64,000 bases of DNA from a virus. How positions within the stretch are numbered: the stretch's first letter is position 1; every line of letters begins with the position of its first letter. This document shows positions 11,345 through 55,716 of the stretch, one piece after another. Made by a program: the position numbers and the translations under genes. Below the pieces are notes generated by a model. It had not been told where the DNA came from, did not search any database, and worked only from the letters and a program-made list of their open reading frames with translations. The stretch lies in IMG/VR virus record IMGVR_UViG_3300010354_000001, positions 49,975-113,974 of that record, one strand, 5' to 3'.

Positions 11345-11459
11345 CGGACTTGACTCTCAGCTTCGCTGAGGGAGATTATCGGCTTCACAGAGTCTGCTTT
11401 TACTCTCGTATGAGTAAGTAGTCTTATTAACTCTCCACCTACGCCCATCCTAGGCGTAT
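11345..11459 (-). ncRNA. Orphan TnpB omegaRNA scaffold, copy C
   Basis: Near-identical to 37429-37544 and homologous to the tnpB 3' end; terminal hairpin replaced by CTCAGC-GAA-GCTGAG but AAGTCCG end kept. Confidence 0.75.
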
Positions 11460-28817: not shown

Positions 28818-29561
28818 TTATTTAGTGTACTGCTGAATGAAGTTCCTTTCATCTATAGTAATACTTGTTAAACTTAAAATCCAAGTTAGATAACTCACTA
28901 ATTCTCTTTCGTTATGTCGCACTAAGTCATCCATAGACTGTCCTTTAAACTTACCCTTGTTGAATACATACTTGCCTAATCCTTCTTGGAAAGTAAACCA
29001 GTCACCTAAAATAAACATCTCACCGAAACCTATCACTTGAGCAGTCTCAGGAATGTTTAACTCTTCGTACATCTCTTGCATCTTTTGGAATATCTGAAGT
29101 GTTGCAATCGCATCTACTTTAGCATCGTGAGCCCCTTCCATAATTTTCCCCGTATAAAGCTTATATAAGCTCTCTAGATTACATCTATTTAACTTTTTAT
29201 GTATTGCGTAAGGATCTATAAGATTTTTGTCTGATAGGGATAATTCAAAACCGCACTCTTTTAACTGCCTAGACAGTATAGAAAAATCAAAAGTAGCGTT
29301 AAACATGATTATGTTCTTATAGGCGTTTAGTATTTTAGATATTCTAGGAGCTACTTCAGAGAAACTTGGAGCATCCTTCAAATCTAATATAGAGATTTTA
29401 TGTATTTCTTCTGCGTCTGGAGATATGGGTACTGTAGGTTTTACATAACTGGAATACGATTTCCCGTCACTAGAAACCAGTGCTATCTGCACTATCTCGT
29501 CCCTCCCTAAATCGAGCCCAGTGGCTTCTATGTCTATAGATAAATACTCGTTTTCTCTCAT
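28818..29561 (-). CDS. DEDDh 3'-5' exonuclease (DnaQ-like)
   Basis: DIEATG, FNATFD, AHDAKVD; C-terminal GKFKG motif. Confidence 0.9.
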   Translation of the reverse strand: MRENEYLSIDIEATGLDLGRDEIVQIALVSSDGKSYSSYVKPTVPISPDAEEIHKISILDLKDAPSFSEVAPRISKILNAYKNIIMFNATFDFSILSRQLKECGFELSLSDKNLIDPYAIHKKLNRCNLESLYKLYTGKIMEGAHDAKVDAIATLQIFQKMQEMYEELNIPETAQVIGFGEMFILGDWFTFQEGLGKYVFNKGKFKGQSMDDLVRHNERELVSYLTWILSLTSITIDERNFIQQYTK

Positions 29562-29572
29562 ACTAATTAGTC

Positions 29573-29691
29573 CGGACTTGTCCCATTAACATACGTTAAG
29601 GGAGATTATCGGCTTCACCGAGTCTGCTTTAATCACCTCGTATAGTGAGTCTAGTCTTACTAACTCTCCACCAGCGGCCATCCTAGCCGCT
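29573..29691 (-). ncRNA. Native TnpB omegaRNA scaffold, copy A (overlaps tnpB 3' end)
   Basis: Canonical position; conserved with covarying stems in copies B and C; putative guide GACTAATTAGTATGAGAG follows. Confidence 0.8.
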
Positions 29692-30761
29692 TCCTTTGCT
29701 ATATTGATAGAAGCGTTCCTGTCTCTGTGGTGCTTTGCACCACATTTACAAGTCCACTCCCTATCAGACAGTTGCAAACTATCATTTATTCTACCACACT
29801 CTGAACAAGTTTTACTAGAAGGAAAAAATCTATTTACCTCTATAACTTGTTTGCCAACAGAGTTGGCTTTATAATTTAAGTAGTTAAGGAATAATCCCCA
29901 ACCAGAGTCAGCTATTGACATAGCTAACTTATGGTTTTTAACTAAACCTTTAATATGTAAATCCTCTACAGCGAATGCTTGATTCTCGCATTCGCTTACT
30001 AGAGAATTAGAAACTTTATGAGAGAAATCTTTTCTCTTATTAGCTATTCTCTCGTGTAGCTTTGCTACACGGATTCTAGCTTGATTTCTCTTTTTAGAAC
30101 CTTTCTGCTTTCTGCAAAAATCTCTTTGAGATTTTTTTAGTTTACTTAAATTTTCTCTTAAAAACTTATTAGGTTTAACTCTAACTCCGTTAGAAGTAAT
30201 TAAAAAATCTTTTAGACCAAGGTCTAAACCTGTTATACCTTCTTTATGTTTAATATTAGATAAATCTAAATCTTCTACTTCAAATAAACAAACTGCATAG
30301 TAACTACCAGAAGCAGATTTTTTAACTGTTACTTTCTTTAACTTGCCTTCAGGCAAGTCACTTCCTCTAAACTTAACTAAGCCTAGCTTCGGTAGTTTTA
30401 TTTTATTACCAATTAAGGAAGTTCCTTGTATTATGGAGTAAGATTTTTTGCAATACTTGTTTTTAAATCTAGGAAATTTACCTACCCCTTTAAAAAATCT
30501 ATTATAAGCTTCTGCTAGATTACCGCAGGTAATCTGTAATTGTGCTGCTGAAGCAGCACTAAGCCATGTATATTGCTTTTTAAGTTTAGGTAAAAGGTTA
30601 TTCATATCATAATTAGATAAAGATTTACCTGTTCTTAAATATTTCTTTTTACAAATCTCTAACATTTTATTATAGATAAATCTAGAACAACCAAACTCAA
30701 TCTCAAGTTGTTTAACTTGTGATTGGTTTGGGTAAAGTTTAATTTCTCTTGATCTAAACAT
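29586..30761 (-). CDS. tnpB: RNA-guided endonuclease TnpB
   Basis: HTH_OrfB N-terminus, FPRFK, RuvC GLDLG / VEDL / DRNAS all intact, CSEC..C.C zinc finger. Confidence 0.95.
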   Translation of the reverse strand: MFRSREIKLYPNQSQVKQLEIEFGCSRFIYNKMLEICKKKYLRTGKSLSNYDMNNLLPKLKKQYTWLSAASAAQLQITCGNLAEAYNRFFKGVGKFPRFKNKYCKKSYSIIQGTSLIGNKIKLPKLGLVKFRGSDLPEGKLKKVTVKKSASGSYYAVCLFEVEDLDLSNIKHKEGITGLDLGLKDFLITSNGVRVKPNKFLRENLSKLKKSQRDFCRKQKGSKKRNQARIRVAKLHERIANKRKDFSHKVSNSLVSECENQAFAVEDLHIKGLVKNHKLAMSIADSGWGLFLNYLNYKANSVGKQVIEVNRFFPSSKTCSECGRINDSLQLSDREWTCKCGAKHHRDRNASINIAKEAARMAAGGELVRLDSLYEVIKADSVKPIISLNVC

Positions 30762-30801
30762 TATAATTGGAGGTGTCTCCTGATTATATTATACTACGTT
30801 C

Positions 30802-31245
30802 TTAACGTATGTTAATGGGATAAGTGTGGATTCTAATAAATCTATCCATGTGCCTAAAAGGAAATTTATTGGCTATATACATGGTTTCCTGCAGTTCTAC
30901 ATTATCTATATAGTAGTGGGGTTTCTCTGGATCAAACTTAATCAACCCTGACTTTATAAGTCCTGAGATTATTTTATCTAACTGTTTGTGTAGATCTGCG
31001 TGAATCTCCCTATCAAGTATTATTAAGTTTCCGTTAAACCCATTCTCTCGATCAAAGTCTATATGGTGTATATCAAATCTGTTGTCGGGGTAAAATCCGT
31101 GTTTAGCTTCAAATTCATCAGCTAAAGCATAGCGATCATCATAATTACGCTTCCTGCTTGCAGTCCATCTTTGGATGTATTTAGGATAAAAAAGTCTCTT
31201 CTTCTTTTTCAAGCGTACTTTAATTGTATCCTCAGAGGTCAGCAT
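30802..31245 (-). CDS. HNH endonuclease-like protein; C-terminus supplied by element end
   Basis: DIHHIDFDRENG...NLIIL...H..LH; ends TYPINIR inside the TIR. Confidence 0.75.
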   Translation of the reverse strand: MLTSEDTIKVRLKKKKRLFYPKYIQRWTASRKRNYDDRYALADEFEAKHGFYPDNRFDIHHIDFDRENGFNGNLIILDREIHADLHKQLDKIISGLIKSGLIKFDPEKPHYYIDNVELQETMYIANKFPFRHMDRFIRIHTYPINIR

Positions 31246-31346: not shown

Positions 31347-31529
31347 CTACTTCTTTGAAATTAAGGCTATAATTGCTGTAAGTGCCAGTAGCCCCATACC
31401 TACAGCATATGGAATCAGCACTCTATGGGAATAGTCGAAATCAGTACACAAATTTATCCACATGGATACCACTACAGTAAATAGCACTGATATTGCTATG
31501 CCTATCGAACTTACTGACACGCTACACAT
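31347..31529 (-). CDS. Small 2-TM membrane protein (start uncertain)
   Basis: Two hydrophobic helices. Confidence 0.5.
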   Translation of the reverse strand: MCSVSVSSIGIAISVLFTVVVSMWINLCTDFDYSHRVLIPYAVGMGLLALTAIIALISKK

Positions 31530-34423
31530 TCCTCGGTATTTATCTTAGCGGATAATACTGAATCAGATCTCAAGTAATACAAGGTCTTAACTCCAGTTTC
31601 CCAAGCTTGGTAGTGAACTTCGTGTAAGTATTTACCGTCTATGTCACCTTTTTCTGTTCTACCAAAGAATAAATTTAAAGACTGTGCCTGACATATATGT
31701 TTCTGTCTTGCTGCTGCCTGCTTAATTATAAATCTTTGATCTAACTCATAAGCTGTCTTGAATAGTTTCTTTTCTTCCTCTGTTAAAAAGTCTAACTGTT
31801 GAACACTGCCAGCATTTTTAATTATAGACTTCCATACTTTAGCAGTGTTTTGTCCTTTTTCTTTTAGTAGATTTTCTAGGTAAATATTTTTAACTAAGAA
31901 GCTTCCGCTTAAAGTTTTTTGTAAGTATGCGTTACCTGCTATAGGTTCTATGCAAGGAGTACAGTTACCTGCGATTATAGATATATTAGCAGTAGGAGCT
32001 ATAGCTGTTAAATAACTATTCCTGTTACCTGGATTATCCTCACACTCACCTTTAATCTTAGCAAGTTCTATAGATTTAGCTCTAGCTGCATTTTGAATCT
32101 TCTCAGAGATTATTTTAGCTAAGGCTACCGACTGAACTCCCTCAAAAGGAATCTTTTCTCGCATTAGGTATCCATGCCACCCCATCAGTCCTAAGCCTAT
32201 AGATCTTTCTTTAGAGGCTGAGTAAATAGCTCTTTTATAGTCTCTAGGATTTGCAGTTTTAAGGAATAGGGTGAGTACGTTATCTAATGCTTCTGTCGCT
32301 ATAGAGGATACATACTCTAATTGGTCTATTGGGCATTGTTCTAGGTTTATGCTGCCAAGTACGCATATGGCCGTTCTGTCTTTGCTTGTTGGCAAGACTA
32401 TCTCAGAGCAGTTGTGCACTAAAACTCCTGAGCAATTTAAGTATTTGTCATCTTGAGTGGAAGTTATTATGTAGAAATTGTGATTATCTTCTACAGTGAG
32501 ATCGTAAACTTCTTGCTCCTCATCAAGCTCTATAACACTTACTACTTTGTGATTACCTATCACTATGGATTTATAGTTACTCCAACTACCACCAAAACGC
32601 ATCTCGCTAAAAGTGTAAGGTATTTTGATTCCAGTCTCCTCCCTGTGTTTAGCTAACATACTTCGAGTTAAATCCCCATGTTTATTATATAATTTTTTGC
32701 CTATGGCAATTAATTCTTCGTTAGTTATACCGTTATAATTAGGGTTTAGCTCTCCTTTAGCCATCTTATTCTTACTACTTAACCACCTTTCCCTAGAAGA
32801 CTTATCCATGCGGTAAACCCAGTTGTTAGTGCCAGATATCTCACTGCTAGTCTTTTTTCTGTGTTCTTTGGCTGAGAGCATCTGTAAATTAGCTATGCCG
32901 TCATTTCTGATATCGTTATCTATGTGATCGATGTGATACCCTTTTGGAATATCCCCATTATAATAACTCCAGATCAGCCTGTGTTGTTTGGTATGCCCGT
33001 TACTAGATGACCCTATATGCCTGTAGGGTGTCTCTTTATGCAATCTAGTATACGTGTTGAAAGGCTGTAAAGAATCTCCATTCTTTAGGTTTCCTGCTTC
33101 TATATACTCGCCATTTTTTAGAGCTATTAAATGATCTTTAGTGCATTTGAATTGGCTATTATCATCCAATAACACTTGCACTAACTTCTTAACCCCAGTC
33201 TTAAACGCTACTGCTGCTTTGACTTCATTAGTCCAGAACGCCTCCTGCACCCCGCCCCCACGAACTCCCCTGCGTTTTATTTTAGCCTCTCTGGCACAAT
33301 ATACTGGGAATTTTTTTCTACCTTTAGACTCTTCCGCAAGCTGCTTTATAGTAACCCCGTTACGTCCGTCCGCTACAGCTACAACAGTATCCCCTGAAAA
33401 ACATAAATTACTTTGTTTTATCTCTAACCCTTTCTCTGAGTGGCTTTGCAGTATGTCTTTATTAGACGTGTCTATGTAGTGGATGTAAGGTTCTCCAGTT
33501 TCAATCCTACTCTTTAAAATCCCCTTCCATAAAGTTCTGGCATCTACAGTCTTAACTACCTCTTTTGTATGTGGGCATATTAAATTAAATGATTCTTTTT
33601 TATTTACCGCTTCCATAAAGTCATCAGTAATGTTTATCCCGTGATGAATATTTAAGCACTTTCTATTCTCATCCCCTCCAGTAGGTTTGCGAATGTTTAT
33701 ATATTCCTCGCAATCTGGATGACTAACATCTAGGTAGATAGCTGCCGAAGCTCTTCTGGTCGAGCCTTGGGATATGGCTAATGTATTAGAATCCAAGACT
33801 TTCATGAAGGGGATAGTACCTGAAGATTTTAAAGTCTTCCTAATAGGTGCTCCATGACCTCTTATGTCTCCCATAAAAACACCTAGCCCTCCTCCGCCTG
33901 CTCCTAAGTGGGCACACTCCTCTATAGTCTTATAGATGTCTGTGATAGAATCTCCCATGTAATTTAGAAAGCAGGAAACTAAATTTCCTTTGTTAGTGGC
34001 AGTGTTAGTTAAAACTGGAGTAGCTGGCATGAACCATAACTTAGATATAACTTCATAAAGCTCTGTGGCCTTAAGTATTAATCCTTCAGTTACTTCCACC
34101 TCATCTTTATCATACTGATCTGCTAAAGTAATACCTGCTGCTACTCTAGCAAAGAACTGCTGTGGCCCTTCTACTAGCTTTAGGTTATCTGACCTTAAGA
34201 AATATCTATCTCTTAAAGTCTCCAGCCCAAAATAAGTTAATAGCTTATTTCTGCTGTTATCTAACGGTATATGTTTTTGTAGAGTCTTTACTTTCTGTGT
34301 GTAATTAGGGCTGTCCCAAGAATTACTATCTCCTACCTCTTCTATGGTCTGTGCAAGTAATATGTCCCTAGCTCCTTCTATATCACCTTTATCTAAAGCT
34401 GCTAATATGTCTTTCTTCATCAC
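31511..34423 (-). CDS. nrdA: Class Ia ribonucleotide reductase alpha subunit with intein
   Basis: PATP, SCF, NL|C...N|CSEI, AIAPTA, TLYY, C-terminal CVAC. Confidence 0.95.
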   Translation of the reverse strand: MMKKDILAALDKGDIEGARDILLAQTIEEVGDSNSWDSPNYTQKVKTLQKHIPLDNSRNKLLTYFGLETLRDRYFLRSDNLKLVEGPQQFFARVAAGITLADQYDKDEVEVTEGLILKATELYEVISKLWFMPATPVLTNTATNKGNLVSCFLNYMGDSITDIYKTIEECAHLGAGGGGLGVFMGDIRGHGAPIRKTLKSSGTIPFMKVLDSNTLAISQGSTRRASAAIYLDVSHPDCEEYINIRKPTGGDENRKCLNIHHGINITDDFMEAVNKKESFNLICPHTKEVVKTVDARTLWKGILKSRIETGEPYIHYIDTSNKDILQSHSEKGLEIKQSNLCFSGDTVVAVADGRNGVTIKQLAEESKGRKKFPVYCAREAKIKRRGVRGGGVQEAFWTNEVKAAVAFKTGVKKLVQVLLDDNSQFKCTKDHLIALKNGEYIEAGNLKNGDSLQPFNTYTRLHKETPYRHIGSSSNGHTKQHRLIWSYYNGDIPKGYHIDHIDNDIRNDGIANLQMLSAKEHRKKTSSEISGTNNWVYRMDKSSRERWLSSKNKMAKGELNPNYNGITNEELIAIGKKLYNKHGDLTRSMLAKHREETGIKIPYTFSEMRFGGSWSNYKSIVIGNHKVVSVIELDEEQEVYDLTVEDNHNFYIITSTQDDKYLNCSGVLVHNCSEIVLPTSKDRTAICVLGSINLEQCPIDQLEYVSSIATEALDNVLTLFLKTANPRDYKRAIYSASKERSIGLGLMGWHGYLMREKIPFEGVQSVALAKIISEKIQNAARAKSIELAKIKGECEDNPGNRNSYLTAIAPTANISIIAGNCTPCIEPIAGNAYLQKTLSGSFLVKNIYLENLLKEKGQNTAKVWKSIIKNAGSVQQLDFLTEEEKKLFKTAYELDQRFIIKQAAARQKHICQAQSLNLFFGRTEKGDIDGKYLHEVHYQAWETGVKTLYYLRSDSVLSAKINTEECVACQ
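32411..33403 (-). mobile_element. Intein (331 aa) with HNH homing endonuclease in NrdA
   Basis: CFSGDT...VLVHN|C; TKDH block B; HRLIW...HIDHIDNDIRNDGIANL. Confidence 0.9.
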
Positions 34424-34825: not shown

Positions 34826-36796
34826 TTAGAAATCTCCCCAATCTGTGTCACCTTTACTGTATTCTGTTGCTCTCGCCTCGAAGAAGTTAGCATGTTCTTT
34901 GCCAGACATCATTAGATCCATCCAATCTAAAGGATTATCCTTAATGCCAAAAATAGCTTTTAATCCTAAGTTTTTAAGTCTGTAGTCTGCGATATATCTT
35001 ATGTAGTGCTTTAACTGTTCTGGGGTTAGCCCATCTACAGCCCCCATCTCGAAACAGGTGTCAATAAAATTATCTTCCAGTCTAACTATCTCTTCACAGG
35101 CATCATAAATTTCTTTTTTAAAGTCTGGATTTCTCAGTAGTTCATACTCTTTGACTAACTCTCTAAATAGGTACGAAACCCCATCAGAGTGGCAGTTCCC
35201 TACTATTGCGTGCTTAAGTCCTCTGCGTACAATTAAAGATCCTTCAGGCATAGTAAAACAGTACACTTTTCCTTTATAATGCTTTCTTTCTTGGTTTACA
35301 GCCTTCCACTTTCCTTCTTTAAGCTTTTTATTTATAGAGACTTTGTAGCTAGTATTGAATTTATCACTCCTATCGCCTGGACGTTCTTGCACAGTACACA
35401 AATACCCTGCTAATATAGCCACAGCTTGGACTTTGTCCCTAGATACTTCGCAAGTAGTTACATAATCTATGAATGAACCGTCCCCATACCTGTCATGCCC
35501 GTCCCAGTGCCCTATTTCTGATATTATGTCTTTGGCTTTTGCTGAACTTAGAGTTTCTAGGTTTATCCAAGATAAAGACTTATCCCTAAATATTATAGGA
35601 ATAATAAAGTGGTAGTTGGCGTACCCTTTCCTATCTAGACTAACTGTATATTTAATACCAGACTCAAGCAATAGCCTTTCTATCCTTTCTTTTTTGCGAT
35701 CTTTTTTTATGTTTAAATTAACACTAGTTCCGCCTGTCCTTTCCCCTAAATTTTTTGGACGTAAGTCCAATGACCCATATGCCTGAACTGCTATTCTTAG
35801 CCTCTCTAGAGGAGTTAACAGACCTTCCCCACCTACCCCACGCCCAGCTAATGGGTATGTGTATCTATTAGAACTTTTAATCTTTGCTAAATCTTTAGCT
35901 TTAATCTTTTGCAGGCTGCTAAATTTGTACCCATCCAGTGAGTCTGAAGGATTGTACTTATAGTTAAATAGTAAATCATGATCTTCGGTGCAGGCTATGT
36001 TTAGCCTAGCTTTACCATCCTTCATGTAAATCAGCTCACCATCAAAATCTTTTTCTATATAATTTATAGGAGTGTCAAACGATATCCCTCTAGTCGTTAA
36101 GTCCATCTGTGCTACTTTTTCCCCAAAAGCGACATCCCTAAATAACTTCCAGCCGTTCTCAGTTAATACCTCGGTTTTATCGTCAAAACAGTTCTCGTCT
36201 TTCACGCTCCAGGTTACTATCTGCCCAACTCCCTTCATTAAGCCCCTTCTAGGAAAGTTCATTAATACTGCGAAAGATGCGAATAAGCTTACCCCTTCTA
36301 TAAATCCGCCAAACACAGCTAAGTTTTTAGCTAGTTGCCTCGGAGTCGGTGCGATGTTAACTCTAGTACCGTCATCTAGAGAGTTTAGGTGCATCATATC
36401 AAATTTATCTCTCATAGCTGCGTAATCTTTAAAAGCCTCATACTCGGAGTCTGGTAAGCCTAAAGTATCATTTAGTTGGCTATATGCCCATGTATGTAAG
36501 ACTTCTGCGTTAGCAAAAGCTGTGAGCATCGCAGCTATTTCAGGCTTAGGAAAGTTCTTTATTAGAGAGGTATTGTAGTTATTCATTACCTCTTGATCTC
36601 CAATTGTAAAAAACCTAAGAATCTGAATTATTAAATTTTTTTCTGGCTCGGTTAACTTCTTATTAAAGTCGTAAATATCATCCGTCATCGGCACTTCAGT
36701 AGGAAGCCAGTGGGCCTTCTGCTGGTTAGTCATGTACTCAAAACAAATCGGATACTCTAAAGGTTTAGGAACCTCTCTCTTAGTTAAAATGCTCAT
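34826..36796 (-). CDS. nrdB: Class Ia ribonucleotide reductase beta subunit with intein
   Basis: WLPTEV, FFT.GD, E.LH..AY, EGVSLFASF, DEN|...|CH, NFFE. Confidence 0.95.
   Translation of the reverse strand: MSILTKREVPKPLEYPICFEYMTNQQKAHWLPTEVPMTDDIYDFNKKLTEPEKNLIIQILRFFTIGDQEVMNNYNTSLIKNFPKPEIAAMLTAFANAEVLHTWAYSQLNDTLGLPDSEYEAFKDYAAMRDKFDMMHLNSLDDGTRVNIAPTPRQLAKNLAVFGGFIEGVSLFASFAVLMNFPRRGLMKGVGQIVTWSVKDENCFDDKTEVLTENGWKLFRDVAFGEKVAQMDLTTRGISFDTPINYIEKDFDGELIYMKDGKARLNIACTEDHDLLFNYKYNPSDSLDGYKFSSLQKIKAKDLAKIKSSNRYTYPLAGRGVGGEGLLTPLERLRIAVQAYGSLDLRPKNLGERTGGTSVNLNIKKDRKKERIERLLLESGIKYTVSLDRKGYANYHFIIPIIFRDKSLSWINLETLSSAKAKDIISEIGHWDGHDRYGDGSFIDYVTTCEVSRDKVQAVAILAGYLCTVQERPGDRSDKFNTSYKVSINKKLKEGKWKAVNQERKHYKGKVYCFTMPEGSLIVRRGLKHAIVGNCHSDGVSYLFRELVKEYELLRNPDFKKEIYDACEEIVRLEDNFIDTCFEMGAVDGLTPEQLKHYIRYIADYRLKNLGLKAIFGIKDNPLDWMDLMMSGKEHANFFEARATEYSKGDTDWGDF
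35195..36190 (-). mobile_element. Intein (332 aa) with degenerate LAGLIDADG-type domain in NrdB
   Basis: CFDDKTEVLT...AIVGN|C; TEDH; IGHWDG. Confidence 0.85.
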
Positions 36797-36799
36797 AAA

Positions 36800-37216
36800 T
36801 TATATCTTTTCCCTTTCTGTTTCAAGTATAGCACCTGCCTTGGCTATATTTCTTGGATATTCTCTACCTCGCATAAAAAATTTACTATCTGTTTTAGTAG
36901 GCTTGTAGTATTTCTCTATAGTAGCTGTTGCAAGCTCTATATCAAAATCTTTGCAGCTAAAAATATCTACTGTTATAAATCCATTTTGGTCTGGAAAAGT
37001 GTGTACTGCTATGTGACTTTCTGCGATTAGCACTACTCCACTAACGCCCCACTCTTCTTCTACTTTGCCTTTATACTTAAAAACATAAGGAGGCATTATC
37101 TTTGTCATCCCTATCTCATCAGGCAACTTATCCAGTATATCTGCGGTTATCTCTACTGATCTTGTAGCTTGCTCATCGCAGCCGTAGAGTTCTAATACTA
37201 AGTGTGGTCCAAACAT
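36800..37216 (-). CDS. speD: S-adenosylmethionine decarboxylase proenzyme (pyruvoyl-dependent)
   Basis: GPHL...LYGC, GVSGVVLIAE|SHIAVHTFP, DIFSC. Confidence 0.9.
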   Translation of the reverse strand: MFGPHLVLELYGCDEQATRSVEITADILDKLPDEIGMTKIMPPYVFKYKGKVEEEWGVSGVVLIAESHIAVHTFPDQNGFITVDIFSCKDFDIELATATIEKYYKPTKTDSKFFMRGREYPRNIAKAGAILETEREKI

Positions 37217-37349
37217 TTGTATAAATATTGTTACTTAACTTTTGTGTTTTAAATATTAAGATTTTTGGTAAAATTTTAAGGCACGGACATAAAAGGAATA
37301 AATGGAAAACAATGAAAACTGCCGTGCCTATACTCCTATTATAGCATAC

Positions 37350-37544
37350 CAAACTTATCCCATTAACATACGTTAAGAATGTAGTATAATATAACTAGGC
37401 ATGATAACCAAGTGTCTATTACGAAAAATACGCCCAGGATGGGCGTAGGTGGAGAGTTAATAAGACTACTTACTCATACGAGAGCAAAAGCAGACTCTGT
37501 GAAGCCGATAATCTCCCTTAACGTATGTTAATGGGATAAGTCCG
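37350..37544 (+). mobile_element. 195-bp non-autonomous mini-element: TIR + promoter + omegaRNA + TIR
   Basis: 28-bp TIRs (26/28), TAGCATAC duplicated at 37342-37349 and 37545-37552, TATAAT at 37385-37390. Confidence 0.85.
37429..37544 (+). ncRNA. TnpB omegaRNA scaffold, copy B
   Basis: Homologous to copies A and C; putative guide TAGCATACTACCGAAAG follows. Confidence 0.75.
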
Positions 37545-37850
37545 TAGCATACTACCGAAAGATCTACTACCATAATAAAAAGGTGAATAATGAACTTGAT
37601 AATCTGTCTTTGGGTCTTGCATTAACTCCACATGACATAAAGAACCAAGACAGGGATAATAATCTCGTGGAAAATACGTTATTATGTTATTTTCTAGATC
37701 CTCTCTATCTAAGATAAACCATTGCACTTCACATTTGTCATCATAATTATAGTAAACCGCATAGTCAGTAGTCTCTACGGACTTACATGATGCATAACCT
37801 AACTCTTCCAATACACTCTTACAATGCTCGAACTTATCTATTGGATTCAT
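37518..37850 (-). CDS. Hypothetical protein; C-terminus extended by mini-element
   Basis: Ends RTYPINIR in the TIR; reconstructed empty site gives ...GSML-stop. Confidence 0.7.
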   Translation of the reverse strand: MNPIDKFEHCKSVLEELGYASCKSVETTDYAVYYNYDDKCEVQWFILDREDLENNIITYFPRDYYPCLGSLCHVELMQDPKTDYQVHYSPFYYGSRSFGSMLRTYPINIR

Positions 37851-49767: not shown

Positions 49768-50018
49768 TTTTTAGTTTGTTGGTTGGGAGTTACTTGAATG
49801 TACGTTCCGTCAGAATTGTAGTAGAAATTTCCTCTTTGAGTAGTATGGCTACCATCGGAGCTAAAGTAAGTATTTCCTATTTTTTTAGTTACATTGCCGT
49901 CAGAACTAAAATAGGTATTGCCTATCTTAGTTCCGTCAGCAGAGTAGACTACTGCTACTATAGTAAGAATTACAGGAAGTACTCCTCTAGAGATCGAAAT
50001 CATCAAACCCATCATCAT
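49764..50018 (-). CDS. Small exported protein with KIGNTYFSSDG repeats (start uncertain)
   Basis: Hydrophobic N-terminus and three 14-15 aa repeats. Confidence 0.6.
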   Translation of the reverse strand: MMMGLMISISRGVLPVILTIVAVVYSADGTKIGNTYFSSDGNVTKKIGNTYFSSDGSHTTQRGNFYYNSDGTYIQVTPNQQTKK

Positions 50019-52172: not shown

Positions 52173-52666
52173 TTTGCTTTTATTTCCAGTTTTTTACCTA
52201 ACTTATTTACTACGGTCATATCATTTACTTCTTGTTTAGTGAAAGCGTTTTCTACCTTGCCTTTGCCTACGCTAATGTATTGCTGTATTTCTTGTATGTC
52301 TTTAGCCGTAAGAGTTATATCCCCTTTTTTAATCTCGGTAATAGTTCTTAACAGTTTCTCAAAAGATATAACGACTTCTTCATTATCTACAGAAGCTACA
52401 CTAACTCCTGAATGAGAAAATCTAGGCTTTCCAAGACTAGGGAAAAGTTCTGCAATCTCATTCTTGGTAGCAGTCTCTTCTTTTCCTATTTCCTTAGCTT
52501 CCCTTTCTTTATCTAAACGCTTAACTCGTAAGTCGTTATATGTAGCCGATAATGTTTTTAGTTTTTCCTCAACCTCTACATCTACTTTCTCTGCTACTAC
52601 TTCATCAAATTCATCAAATTCATCAAATTCTATTTCTTGCATTTTTGTCTCCTCTAGATAGTACAA
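52169..52666 (-). CDS. Hypothetical coiled-coil protein (likely start 52642)
   Basis: GGAG RBS before second Met. Confidence 0.7.
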   Translation of the reverse strand: MYYLEETKMQEIEFDEFDEFDEVVAEKVDVEVEEKLKTLSATYNDLRVKRLDKEREAKEIGKEETATKNEIAELFPSLGKPRFSHSGVSVASVDNEEVVISFEKLLRTITEIKKGDITLTAKDIQEIQQYISVGKGKVENAFTKQEVNDMTVVNKLGKKLEIKAK

Positions 52667-55600
52667 AAGTCTGGTCTTGTTGCTATCATTTGTATGTTAT
52701 TCCCATCATAGCAGAAATATTTACTTGCTTGCTCTTTAGTTACATTAAATTCTTTACAGAATAGTCTAAAGTCTTTAGCTCTTTCTTTTTTGGGATCGTC
52801 TATTTCAAACTGCAATTCTGCTAACGTGAATACGTCAGCCCAGTTAACCCCTAAGTCTGGATCTGCTACAAAAGGTATAGGTGAGATTATGCCAAAATCT
52901 CTAGCTATGGGCACATTCTCCATATACCATTTTATGTAACTCGCATATTCTACAGCTAATTCTTTTCTCACTTCAAAATATAAAGCATCATGGATGAAAT
53001 TTATGGGTCTAATATTATTTCGATCCATATCTTTCATAATGTAATAGAAAGCCATTAAGCCCATATCACTACCAAATTCTTGTATACACGAATTTATGGA
53101 GTAGCGTTCTGCTTCTAACTTAACCCATTTATCGTGTGAGTGTATGGCTGGTAAATGCCTAGTGCTGCCGTGAAGAGCCTTGACATACCCGTGTTTATGT
53201 GCAAACTCTTTAGTATCTGTATGCCATTGTTCCAATCCAGGGTAAGTCTGAGTCAGTAAAGTCTCTCTGATTATCTCGGCCTCTTCTAAAGTAAAGTCCG
53301 CATTATATAGAAGTTTAGCGTAAACCACAAACCCTTTAGGCAATAACCCATACATAAATCCAAATATAATAGCTTTAGCTTTATTTCTTAACTCTTTTCT
53401 TAATTTGGAGTCTATCTTCCTAAATTCTTCTATAGTTATCTTCAGTAGTATCTCTGCTGCGGTTTTAGCGTGTATGTCTAATCCTTCATTGTAGATCTGT
53501 TGCATTACCTTCTCTTTTGCAGCGATGGCAATACACCTAAGCTCCATCTGAGAATAATCTGCTGCTAGTAAAACAAAACCATCTGATGTTATAATGCTTT
53601 TCTTAAACTGCACGGCTAGATCCCCTTTTGACGGAGGGTTCTGCATGTTAGGTCTTTTGCAGTTTGAGTTATGTGATACTATACCATTAGCTATGTAACT
53701 GTGATCTTCCTCTACTTCTATATCGAATGTCTCTACTAGATCATTCTTTTTGTAATAGAATGAATTAACTTTAGATCCTTTAAACTCGCCATTGGAATAG
53801 GTCATTAACTTATCTGTATAGTCTAAATGTTGAATTTGTTTAAAGTCTCCCGACTCTAACATGAGCTTATGTTTTAAAGTTCCTCTAATTACAAAGCCGT
53901 TATCTAAGCAAACTCCATAAACTTCTTTCTTGCCGTTCTTGAAAATCTTAGCTACTGGCATGTGGCGTTGCTTATGCGTTAAAACTAAATCCCCAACAAC
54001 TATTTGATCTATTCTCTTAGTGATAGTTTTTCTGCCCTGTTTAACTGTAACTAAAGTATCCCCTGTTAAGCATCTACCAGTGTTAGTGTGGATATCGTAG
54101 GTAGGGTGGATTCTGTACTCTCCTGTTTCCTCGTTAAACTTTATATGCTGCCATAGCCCTGTAAGCTTCTCTCTATCACCTGTGTAGGTATCACTCATCT
54201 TGGATATCTTGGAGTAGTCGCAGTACCTATCTATTAGTTCGTAGCCTTGCTCTTTAAAGAATTTTAAATGCGTGTTGACCGCTATAGAAGGAATTTTTAC
54301 TTCTTTGGTTTTACTAGAAGGTTCATAGCCTTTATCTGGAATAGGAATAATCCCTAAACCGTCCTCGGAAAATATCGCATCTCTCATCATCTCTTTATTC
54401 CCTAATCTTAAAGGCTCTTTGGTTTCAGCTTTTTTACCAAACATATACTTACGTCTTATTTTAGGAGGGATGAGTTTAATTATTTCTACACTTTCCTCTT
54501 TTAAATGTTTTAAGTATTCCTTAGATATACTGTCAAAATAGTTAACGTCTACTCTAATTCCAGTACGTTCCATGTCAAAAAATGTCTCTATAGCTCTCAT
54601 CTTAACTTTACTGAATACCTTTAGATTACTTGGATCTTCTTTAGCGATCTTTATTAGAGTCTTGCATAATCTAAAAGTGGCATCTGTATCTCCTCCTGCA
54701 TAGTCTATCATATCTGTAGGATGTACGGCTATCATTTGCCCTTTATCCGTCTCTCTATTAAAATTATCTGCATAGCCAGCAAGCTCAGGCACAAATATTT
54801 TAACCGCATTATCTAGACCTTTCGATGGCATATTCTCGTCTATAGACCATAACATTTGCAATGTGTCTACGTATAAACCTTTAAGTCTGTGTCCTAGATT
54901 AAGTGCCATGTGCATATCAAATTTTATATTATGCCCTATCTTCTTAATGTTAGGATCTTCTATTAACTCTTTCCACTGGTCTCTTAAAGTATCATAACTA
55001 AACTCGCCAAAAGTCTCTCTAAAGTACTCAGGAAAATAATCTTCTGCTACTGGACTTAAAATAGAATGTCCTTCTTTAAAAGTCATCTGATAAACTATCG
55101 GTTTGTTTATCTTCCAGTCAAGTCCAGTAGTCTCCGTATCAAAAGCTATGGCAGTCGGCCTATTCTCTAGTATGTCTGAAATATCGACTCTCCACTCATA
55201 ATTATTCTCAAACTTAAATAAATTATCATTATACTCAAAGTTATTCTGTATTAGCTTTTTAAGCATCATTATTTGAGCTTTAACTAAAGATATAGAATCT
55301 TTATACATAGCTGCATTTCTAATGCTTATACAGCCTATTATAGGGTATGGATGACTTTCAACTTTCCTAATGATGCCTTCAAAGTCTCCAGCTACCACGG
55401 ATCTCCCAAAAACTTGCAGCGCAGCATATTTGGCCACATATAATAGAGCTTTAGGCTTAAAAGTGTTAAAGATTTTTAAGAAGTCAGCTCTACAAGCTAG
55501 TACAAATTCTTTGGCTGCTTTTTCTATTTTCTTGATTTCTCTAGGTATTTCTGGGGCTGGAATTATAAAGGAAACTTTAGATAAATCTACACCAGCTTCT

Positions 55601-55716
55601 TTTAGGGTGGAGGTAAGTATCTTGCCAGACTCGCTAACTATAAATTCCGACATCGATTGATTTGACGGCTCTAATATAACTAAAACATCACATATTCTAT
55701 TTCCTGCTACTTTCAC
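52654..55716 (-). CDS. polA: Family A DNA polymerase with N-terminal UDG-like domain, 3'-5' exonuclease and intein
   Basis: FDTETTG, HNIKFD, YAGGD; TGR|..|SN..PNMQN, ADYSQMELR, R..AKAI.FG..YG, IHDA. Confidence 0.92.
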   Translation of the reverse strand: MKVAGNRICDVLVILEPSNQSMSEFIVSESGKILTSTLKEAGVDLSKVSFIIPAPEIPREIKKIEKAAKEFVLACRADFLKIFNTFKPKALLYVAKYAALQVFGRSVVAGDFEGIIRKVESHPYPIIGCISIRNAAMYKDSISLVKAQIMMLKKLIQNNFEYNDNLFKFENNYEWRVDISDILENRPTAIAFDTETTGLDWKINKPIVYQMTFKEGHSILSPVAEDYFPEYFRETFGEFSYDTLRDQWKELIEDPNIKKIGHNIKFDMHMALNLGHRLKGLYVDTLQMLWSIDENMPSKGLDNAVKIFVPELAGYADNFNRETDKGQMIAVHPTDMIDYAGGDTDATFRLCKTLIKIAKEDPSNLKVFSKVKMRAIETFFDMERTGIRVDVNYFDSISKEYLKHLKEESVEIIKLIPPKIRRKYMFGKKAETKEPLRLGNKEMMRDAIFSEDGLGIIPIPDKGYEPSSKTKEVKIPSIAVNTHLKFFKEQGYELIDRYCDYSKISKMSDTYTGDREKLTGLWQHIKFNEETGEYRIHPTYDIHTNTGRCLTGDTLVTVKQGRKTITKRIDQIVVGDLVLTHKQRHMPVAKIFKNGKKEVYGVCLDNGFVIRGTLKHKLMLESGDFKQIQHLDYTDKLMTYSNGEFKGSKVNSFYYKKNDLVETFDIEVEEDHSYIANGIVSHNSNCKRPNMQNPPSKGDLAVQFKKSIITSDGFVLLAADYSQMELRCIAIAAKEKVMQQIYNEGLDIHAKTAAEILLKITIEEFRKIDSKLRKELRNKAKAIIFGFMYGLLPKGFVVYAKLLYNADFTLEEAEIIRETLLTQTYPGLEQWHTDTKEFAHKHGYVKALHGSTRHLPAIHSHDKWVKLEAERYSINSCIQEFGSDMGLMAFYYIMKDMDRNNIRPINFIHDALYFEVRKELAVEYASYIKWYMENVPIARDFGIISPIPFVADPDLGVNWADVFTLAELQFEIDDPKKERAKDFRLFCKEFNVTKEQASKYFCYDGNNIQMIATRPDFCTI
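53668..54072 (-). mobile_element. Mini-intein (135 aa) in PolA
   Basis: CLTGDT...TLKH...IVSHN|S. Confidence 0.9.

Follow-up and report, generated by a model that had tools for sequence, protein, structure and literature searches.

A tnpB element with inverted ends in a phage genome

The DNA analyzed here is a stretch of 64,000 nucleotides (positions 49,975 to 113,974 of IMG/VR record IMGVR_UViG_3300010354_000001). This stretch, which we call the window, forms the right-hand part of a single-contig virus record of 113,974 bp with 36% G+C, a complete phage genome as judged by its IMG/VR direct terminal repeats and a CheckV value of 100%. The window contains a 1.26-kb element, element A, that was first picked out by a prediction made from the letters of the window alone (the original prediction). 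The same genome carries a second, diverged tnpB element (element B) and three short derivatives that have the guide-RNA scaffold but no tnpB. The reading that we favor, with a confidence that we would put at about even, is that element A is a non-autonomous transposon of the kind in which a solo tnpB lies between terminal inverted repeats (TIRs), and that it is moved in trans by a cut-and-paste (DDE-type) transposase. Element A lies between the start codon of a 3'-5' exonuclease gene on one side and the end of an HNH gene on the other, and consists of the following parts.

Window 29573-30828, minus strand: element A, a tnpB-only element with TIRs, tnpB, and a predicted guide-RNA scaffold
30801..30828, minus strand: left-end TIR, upstream of tnpB, with the tip CACACTT versus CGGACTT at the right end
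30788..30815, minus strand: promoter-like site for tnpB and the guide RNA, with a -35 box TTAACA inside the left repeat, a 16-nt spacer, and a -10 box TATAAT
29586..30761, minus strand: tnpB open reading frame (ORF) of 391 amino acids, the sole protein encoded by element A
29573..29692, minus strand: predicted guide-RNA (omega RNA) scaffold of ~120 nt, which overlaps the tnpB 3' end and finishes at the tip ...AAGTCCG
29573..29600, minus strand: right-end TIR, made up of the hairpin CTTAAC-GTAT-GTTAAG and the scaffold tail TGGGACAAGTCCG
29557..29572, minus strand: segment of 16 nt next to the right end (GACTAATTAGTATGAG), predicted to be the guide, which overlaps the exonuclease start codon

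The TIRs of element A are 28 bp long and 25/28 identical, with mismatches at positions 2, 3, and 8; a repeat finder delimits the arms as 29571-29600 and 30801-30830 (30 nt, 90% complementary). A 20-nt core, TCCCATTAACATACGTTAAG, occurs exactly four times in the window, at 29581-29600 (plus strand), 30801-30820 (minus strand), 37358-37377 (plus strand), and 37517-37536 (minus strand), which is two inverted pairs, with none expected in 100 shuffles. Because this exact 20-mer, including the hairpin loop and the nonpalindromic flank, is on opposite strands, the ends are truly inverted and are not a direct repeat of a palindrome, just as the original prediction had described them.

The protein encoded by element A (TnpB-A) matches the Pfam families Cas12f1-like_TNB (3.5e-23), OrfB_IS605 (4.7e-19), and HTH_OrfB_IS605 (2.2e-11). 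It has the helix-turn-helix, OrfB_IS605 (RuvC), and zinc-ribbon TNB domains by which a TnpB is recognized, with an intact D-E-D triad, and both the RuvC triad (D180/E266/D347) and the zinc-finger cysteines (C319/C322/C338/C340) are invariant among 33 relatives. The final five residues of TnpB-A (SLNVC-stop) are encoded by the right-end hairpin. The promoter-like site agrees with sigma-70-like consensus at 11/12 positions and is a consensus match only. The left repeat also reaches into the neighboring gene: it supplies the final eight codons and the stop of a free-standing HNH endonuclease ORF (window 30802-31245, minus strand), which in relatives without element A ends ...LRLMLY-stop.

The right end as part of a predicted guide RNA

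The final 120 nt of element A were aligned with five other copies, which come from the tnpB element of a sister contig, from two miniature inverted-repeat transposable elements (MITE1 and MITE2), from a stand-alone scaffold, and from element B. These features of the phage, with the sequences flanking MITE1, are located as follows.

37350..37544, plus strand: MITE1, a 195-bp deletion derivative without tnpB, in which the left repeat and a promoter-like piece are retained along with ~115 nt from the right end (the scaffold and its repeat)
37342..37349, plus strand: left copy of the 8-bp duplication TAGCATAC flanking MITE1, with TTA before it
37545..37552, plus strand: right copy of the 8-bp duplication TAGCATAC flanking MITE1
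L207:12697-12895 (contig coordinates): MITE2, a mini-element just upstream of a gene for a 569-amino-acid structural-like protein
Window 11345..11459, minus strand: stand-alone scaffold with the promoter-like piece GTATGCTATAAT, no left repeat, and the hairpin CTCAGC/GCTGAG
L207:7422-8679 (contig coordinates, upstream of the window): element B, the second tnpB element, encoding 390 amino acids

RNAalifold predicts 20 pairs from the six copies, 8 of them with compensatory changes; the stem supported in this way is a separate 5' stem (stem 1). The RNAalifold consensus does not include the terminal hairpin, whose conservation was read by eye from the alignment. In all six copies, a terminal hairpin is followed by a tail like GGGAYAAGTCCG, and all six finish in TCCG. 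The hairpin sequence varies among otherwise near-identical copies (CTTAAC/GTTAAG, TCTAG/CTAGA, and CTCAGC/GCTGAG), and its self-complementarity is kept. No Rfam family matches the scaffold. Judged by this pattern of conservation, the right repeat is the conserved 3' end of the predicted guide-RNA scaffold, which agrees with the proposal in the original prediction that the right TIR doubles as an RNA 3' hairpin. From what is known of TnpB biology, the 16 nt beyond the right end are predicted to be the guide, and according to the unoccupied alleles described below, the flank that holds them is native DNA.

MITE1 fits the definition of a MITE in that it is short and noncoding, has TIRs and a target duplication, and is derived from a longer element. 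MITE2 has a degenerate left tip and a right hairpin (TCTAG/CTAGA) that is unlike its left one. The stand-alone scaffold is fused to the stop codon of a DUF2828 gene. MITE1, MITE2, and the stand-alone copy are three near-identical scaffolds with different terminal hairpins and different flanking "guides." MITE1, which retains the promoter-like piece and the full scaffold, might serve TnpB in trans as an additional guide cassette.

Element B has 57% protein identity and 70% DNA identity to element A. Its TIRs are perfect (24/24; TCGGAATAATCCCTTCATAGACAT) and their sequence is unlike that of the element A repeats. However, the tip of element B (CGGAATAATCCC) is recognizably homologous to the tip of element A (CGGACTTATCCC), and the presence of homologous tips in both lineages argues for symmetric recognition of both ends.

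Occupied and unoccupied insertion sites

IMG/VR contains pieces of related phages with 80-89% DNA identity to the present one, and comparison with these gave five filled-versus-empty pairs; the sequences are given in tnpB orientation. The sample is small, and all elements compared belong to one phage lineage. Related phages lack the elements at the same sites, so the family has moved, and the occupation of different sites in close relatives shows that it is mobile.

MITE1 is missing from the record of L369, where there is a single TATCATAC with TTA before it. This single-copy empty allele, together with TAGCATAC on both sides of MITE1, shows that the exact 8-bp duplication is genuine, as had been claimed for this mini-element from the window alone. 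The probability of an exact 8-mer at the MITE1 tips by chance is ~3e-5. The sister tnpB element, in record IMGVR_UViG_3300043786_000740, is 88.9% identical to element A in DNA and lies in the last codons of a gene, at a site that is unoccupied in the present genome. It duplicates GTGCTG(C), which is 6-7 bp, when the preinsertion sequence is taken from the codon alignment. The right junction is clean at 4/5 sites. The trinucleotide TTA is directly 5' of the right-flank homologue at 4/5 sites, and ATA is at the fifth (P ~8e-6, or 7e-5 for any trimer); because the TTA-bearing allele was chosen where relatives differed, the P value for TTA is somewhat optimistic. On this sequence evidence, TTA, lying just outside the duplication, is a candidate TnpB recognition motif (target-adjacent motif [TAM]).

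The exact 8-bp duplication at MITE1, the 6-7-bp duplication at the sister element, and the retention of long TIRs in two diverged lineages argue for a transposase of the DDE cut-and-paste type, with symmetric binding to the two ends and staggered cutting of the target. The original prediction held that TnpB had been captured by a DDE-type element. The true TIRs, the non-autonomous nature of the element, at least one 8-bp duplication, and the separation of the tnpB clade from all Y1-linked relatives (see below) speak for that proposal; neither Y1 (IS200/IS605) nor serine (IS607) transposition leaves such a duplication. No partner transposase was found in the collections searched. As for the direction of capture, it is just as possible that the left end is an inverted copy of the 3' end of the guide RNA itself.

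Several observations weigh against movement by a DDE-type transposase, and the chief one that this model leaves unexplained is the absence of a duplication at element B. Element B is missing from L370 and L371, where the empty alleles are CCCAT TAC AAAAAGTG and CCCAC TATAC AAAGTG, and the filled site reads CCCAT, then the element (CGGAAT...ATTCCG), then AAAGAAGTG. Element B thus sits tip to tip in the ~14-nt spacer that separates two genes. Despite its perfect repeats, it has no duplication, and the filled site has lost 2 nt relative to the empty alleles. MITE2 is missing from three relatives, in which the empty allele is TAGATA followed by ACCACATGG, and it too has no duplication. At the sister element, 15 extra nucleotides, TAGATACTTTGCAGG (L124:4006-4020), are present between the right tip and the right duplicate. 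The left junction is variable across the five sites, with the left tips CGG, CAC, and CAA, and such variation is unusual for the terminal bases of a DDE substrate. A uniform 8-bp duplication is not supported by the five comparisons: the length is 8 bp at MITE1 and 6-7 bp (plus 15 nt) at the sister element, the copy at element A is degenerate, and element B and MITE2 have no duplication. In addition, searches of viral contigs, plasmids, five cyanobacterial genomes, and the phage gave no transposase with matching ends.

Element A provides the degenerate copy. It is missing from L368 and L369, where the empty allele reads TCA or TTA, then GACTAATG CTA TACTAATT GC ATG, while the filled site reads TTATTA GAATC, then the element (CACACTT...AAGTCCG), then GACTAATT AGT ATG. 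The right junction is exact, but at the left junction GAATC is present in place of the expected duplicated GACTAATG, which is a further point against the DDE model; these two unoccupied alleles confirm the earlier statement that no duplication flanks this tnpB copy. GAATC could have arisen through loss of 3 nt in frame and a single substitution near the end of the HNH ORF, whose stop codon is now within the repeat. At the empty site (L368:3960-4000 and L369:3960-4000), GACTAATG CTA TACTAATT amounts to two 6/8-identical copies that are 3 nt apart, and the 8-mer that is doubled there is the 8 nt abutting the right end of element A. The doubled 8-mer could be a native repeat or an excision footprint. 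A single copy of it would make the HNH stop codon overlap the exonuclease start codon (ATGA).

The 15 nt at the sister element might be a guide carried from a former site, but a search for such a site gave no match. Their inverted similarity to the flank 15 nt further on is weak, at a level reached by 49/2000 shuffles. A likeness between the 5 nt outside the left tips of element A and MITE2 was set aside, as it comes down to 4 shared bases.

Gene content of the phage and candidate mobilizing enzymes

The gene set is that of a large lytic-type phage with T5-like content, including a T5 A1-like DNA transfer protein, a terminase, and free-standing HNH genes. The family A DNA polymerase carries an intein, and the class I ribonucleotide reductase subunits carry inteins and an HNH insert. 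Three inteins along with the HNH genes make this phage genome unusually rich in selfish elements. The following features are near the elements or belong to this set.

Window 31511-34423, 34826-36796, and 52654-55716, minus strand: inteins in the large (with an HNH domain) and small ribonucleotide reductase subunits and in the family A DNA polymerase
Window 36800-37216, minus strand: S-adenosylmethionine decarboxylase (speD-like) gene, which adjoins MITE1

The complete phage genome was searched with nine transposase Pfam families (IS1595, Y1, resolvase, IS630, IS4/5, rve, IS6/IS240, ISL3, and IS256), and none of them has a match in it. The earlier observation that the window holds no intact transposase is thereby extended to the whole genome. 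As the complete genome has no match to these families, the mobilizing enzyme would act in trans, presumably from the host, and a DDE-type transposase that moves these elements is probably host borne.

One narrower form of the DDE-type reading, in which the shell is that of an IS1595-family element of the ISNha5 group, seems to us very unlikely. It draws on the 8-bp duplication of MITE1, but IS6, ISL3, IS256, IS1, and IS66 family elements likewise make 8-bp duplications. The right tip of element A (CGGACTT) fits what we take to be the ISNha5 consensus, CGGnnTT, but this fit is no test. The element B tip, on the other hand, is CGGAATA, the Pfam search of the complete genome found no DDE_Tnp_IS1595 domain (although a copy in the host could act in trans), and no partner element was found in the collections searched. 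None of the features that define the IS1595 family was established here. The negative result for the resolvase (serine recombinase) domain in the same search bears on a different proposal, which is that these are IS607-type elements moved by a serine recombinase. IS607 behavior is compatible with 0-2-bp duplications, which would fit the sites of element A, element B, and MITE2, and IS607-type TnpB elements do occur in viruses. However, the 8-bp duplication of MITE1 is contrary to this, and IS607 elements have neither TIRs nor target duplications (PMC6188088). We regard an IS607-type origin as extremely improbable.

A further reading, with which the abundance of inteins and HNH genes in a lytic-type phage is consistent, is that there is no dedicated transposase at all. 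The elements would then spread between coinfecting phages by TnpB-guided cutting followed by recombinational repair (homing) and reach new sites by rare illegitimate or microhomology recombination. The left repeat would exist for some other reason; it might, for example, have copied the 3' end of the RNA in inverted orientation and so provide the promoter with a -35 box. The genome without a match to the nine transposase families is consistent with this, as are the heterogeneous junctions (0, 0, ~2-5 degenerate, 6-7 plus 15 nt, and 8 bp), the clean right junction at 4/5 sites with a variable left one, and the position of the -35 box inside the left repeat. However, a promoter box would not call for long TIRs such as those kept in the two lineages (25/28 and 24/24), where their sequences differ, and MITE1 was inserted cleanly although it has no tnpB. 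Moreover, an exact 8-bp duplication that abuts both tips (P ~3e-5) is the signature of a staggered transposase cut. For these reasons, we consider homing without a transposase to be unlikely. It is rather unlikely, in our estimation, that these elements represent a phage-adapted TnpB family that is free of classical transposases, in which the left end is an inverted copy of the guide-RNA 3' end, insertion is by a TnpB-linked or undescribed route with 0-8-bp junctions, and the three promoter-bearing guide cassettes form a multiguide homing arsenal against related phages.

More distant relatives

Relatives of these elements were sought in several collections. An inverted-repeat screen of relatives at 33-45% identity, drawn from viral, metagenome, and genome collections, could score ~240 loci whose flanks were long enough. 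It gave no comparable repeat, the best other score being 15, versus 22 for element A and 24 for element B. The top-scoring distant relative, L020, was rejected as a parallel to elements A and B, since its right copy lies at the tnpB stop while the scaffold runs ~110 nt beyond, so that the repeat is not terminal, and since L020 falls in the Y1 clade. A TCCG-tail motif downstream of L009 was also rejected, as it is outside that element. Searches for the element ends in viral contigs, with exact and degenerate patterns, matched the sister contig alone, and a blastn search of plasmids with MITE1 gave nothing. A 12-nt tip motif is mildly enriched in five cyanobacterial genomes; the 18 sites that were inspected share no extended sequence, which points to chance or coding bias.

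The nearest database proteins (P0002-P0057) are 47-94% identical to TnpB-A, and TnpB-A shares 40-45% identity with TnpBs of cyanobacteria and phages. No tnpB relatives between 45% and 90% identity came up when metagenome, genome, and viral collections were scanned, and blastn and tblastn searches of isolated phages found no close relative, the best being 42.5%. In the tree, for which the supports are local FastTree SH-like (Shimodaira-Hasegawa-like) values and not bootstrap values, the TnpBs of elements A and B group with eleven close proteins from the databases (99% support) inside a clade of 59 proteins. The cyanobacterial relatives, and every one of the fifteen relatives linked to a Y1 tnpA, fall on the other side of a 100%-supported branch from this 59-protein clade. 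These Y1-linked relatives have IS200/IS605-type ends with long, GC-rich hairpins in direct orientation (e.g., L009 and L043), and in L009, L043, and L293 the scaffold runs ~130-180 nt past the tnpB stop.

These comparisons bear on whether element A is instead an IS200/IS605-type element that is moved by a host Y1 (HUH) TnpA acting in trans on subterminal hairpins, with the TIR being incidental and the MITE1 repeat coincidental. At both ends, a small hairpin is set back 13 nt from the tip, an arrangement similar to that of IS608. In the wider family (≥40% identity), 15 neighboring genes are Y1_Tnp. Element B and MITE2 have no duplication and exact right junctions, and the T-rich motif directly 5' of the target resembles IS200/IS605 target and TAM motifs. 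In contrast to what Y1 transposition would lead us to expect, the loop and the 13-nt outer segments are inverted, not direct, and the hairpins have only 5 AT-rich pairs. The element B repeat has no equivalent hairpin. The direct, GC-rich hairpins of L009 and L043 and the scaffolds that run well past their tnpB stops are different from the ends described here. An empty allele bears out the duplication at MITE1, and the sister element has one of 6-7 bp. Moreover, all the Y1-linked relatives are separate from this clade, and the Pfam search found no Y1 tnpA in the complete phage genome. Based on the balance of these points, we consider the Y1 explanation quite unlikely.

A possible two-step life cycle and its relation to known systems

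The order of TTA, duplication, element, and then duplication plus flank is what TnpB needs in order to recognize an unoccupied site, and this leads us to propose a two-step life cycle. In the first step, a host-borne DDE-type transposase would bind both repeats, make a staggered cut of ~8 bp, and, rarely, transpose the element to a new site. After insertion, TnpB and its guide RNA would take the DNA abutting the right end as the guide, which would begin with the duplicated bases. TnpB would then cut copies of the unoccupied site that have TTA just upstream, either in coinfecting relatives or after excision, and repair of the cut would copy the element back, resulting in homing or retention. 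The left tip and the left duplicate would be dispensable for the homing step and so could decay, while the right tip would be held constant by its role in the RNA. The contrast between left-end decay and right-tip constancy fits this division into two steps, because only the right tip is constrained by the RNA.

Altae-Tran et al. (2023) described six branches of DDE transposase-associated TnpBs (DDE-1 to DDE-6), all with inverted terminal repeats; the DDE-6 branch pairs with IS630 and occurs in giant viruses, and solo TnpBs flanked by nearly identical ends were presumed to be moved in trans (PMC10691335). Element A resembles these DDE-associated and solo TnpBs in that tnpB lies between TIRs and in that the tnpB 3' end is ≤250 bp from the transposon end, the distance here being 13 nt. 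It differs from DDE-associated TnpBs in that no partner transposase or autonomous element was found, the host is a bacteriophage, and the duplications are heterogeneous (PMC10691335). Fanzors are found in eukaryotic transposons with TIRs and target site duplications, where the repeat and the duplication are part of the guide RNA (Yoon et al. 2023, PMC10711439), and Fanzor elements include non-autonomous copies in an ascovirus genome (Bao and Jurka 2013, PMC3627910; PMC10711439). Like Fanzor elements, the elements described here have a TnpB-family nuclease inside a TIR transposon and a repeat within the (here predicted) guide RNA (PMC3627910, PMC10711439). Unlike Fanzors, which belong to eukaryotic elements and viruses, they have an ordinary prokaryotic-type TnpB in a phage.

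Similarities to tnpB-only IS200/IS605 elements (the IS1341 group) and to palindrome-associated transposable elements (PATEs) are also apparent, as in both cases there are short deletion derivatives in which neither end is lost, a guide RNA located at the right end, and a T-rich motif beside the target (PMC3119063). However, IS1341-group elements and PATEs have direct palindromes, no TIRs, and no duplications (PMC3119063), whereas here the ends are inverted and at least one copy has an 8-bp duplication. MITE1, with its 195 bp, lack of coding sequence, TIRs, and 8-bp duplication, is like the MITEs of DDE insertion sequences, but unlike them, it retains a promoter-like piece and a complete guide-RNA scaffold.

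The pairing of TnpB with DDE transposases and the existence of solo TnpBs with TIRs were already published in 2023 (PMC10691335), and the elements described here do not establish a new class. They are particular in that they reside in a bacteriophage, that occupied and empty alleles can be compared, that their junctions are heterogeneous, that a -35 box lies within the left repeat, and that three guide-only derivatives accompany them. TnpB is the ancestor of Cas12 and a genome-editing tool, and to our knowledge, its service to transposons beyond IS200/IS605 and IS607 has been little studied. This phage, whose complete genome holds both diverged tnpB elements along with the three guide-only derivatives, and its relatives provide a compact natural set of occupied and unoccupied alleles. 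Together with the candidate TAM, TTA, just outside the duplication, this set makes both the logic by which the guide is the duplication plus the flank and RNA-guided homing between phages directly testable.

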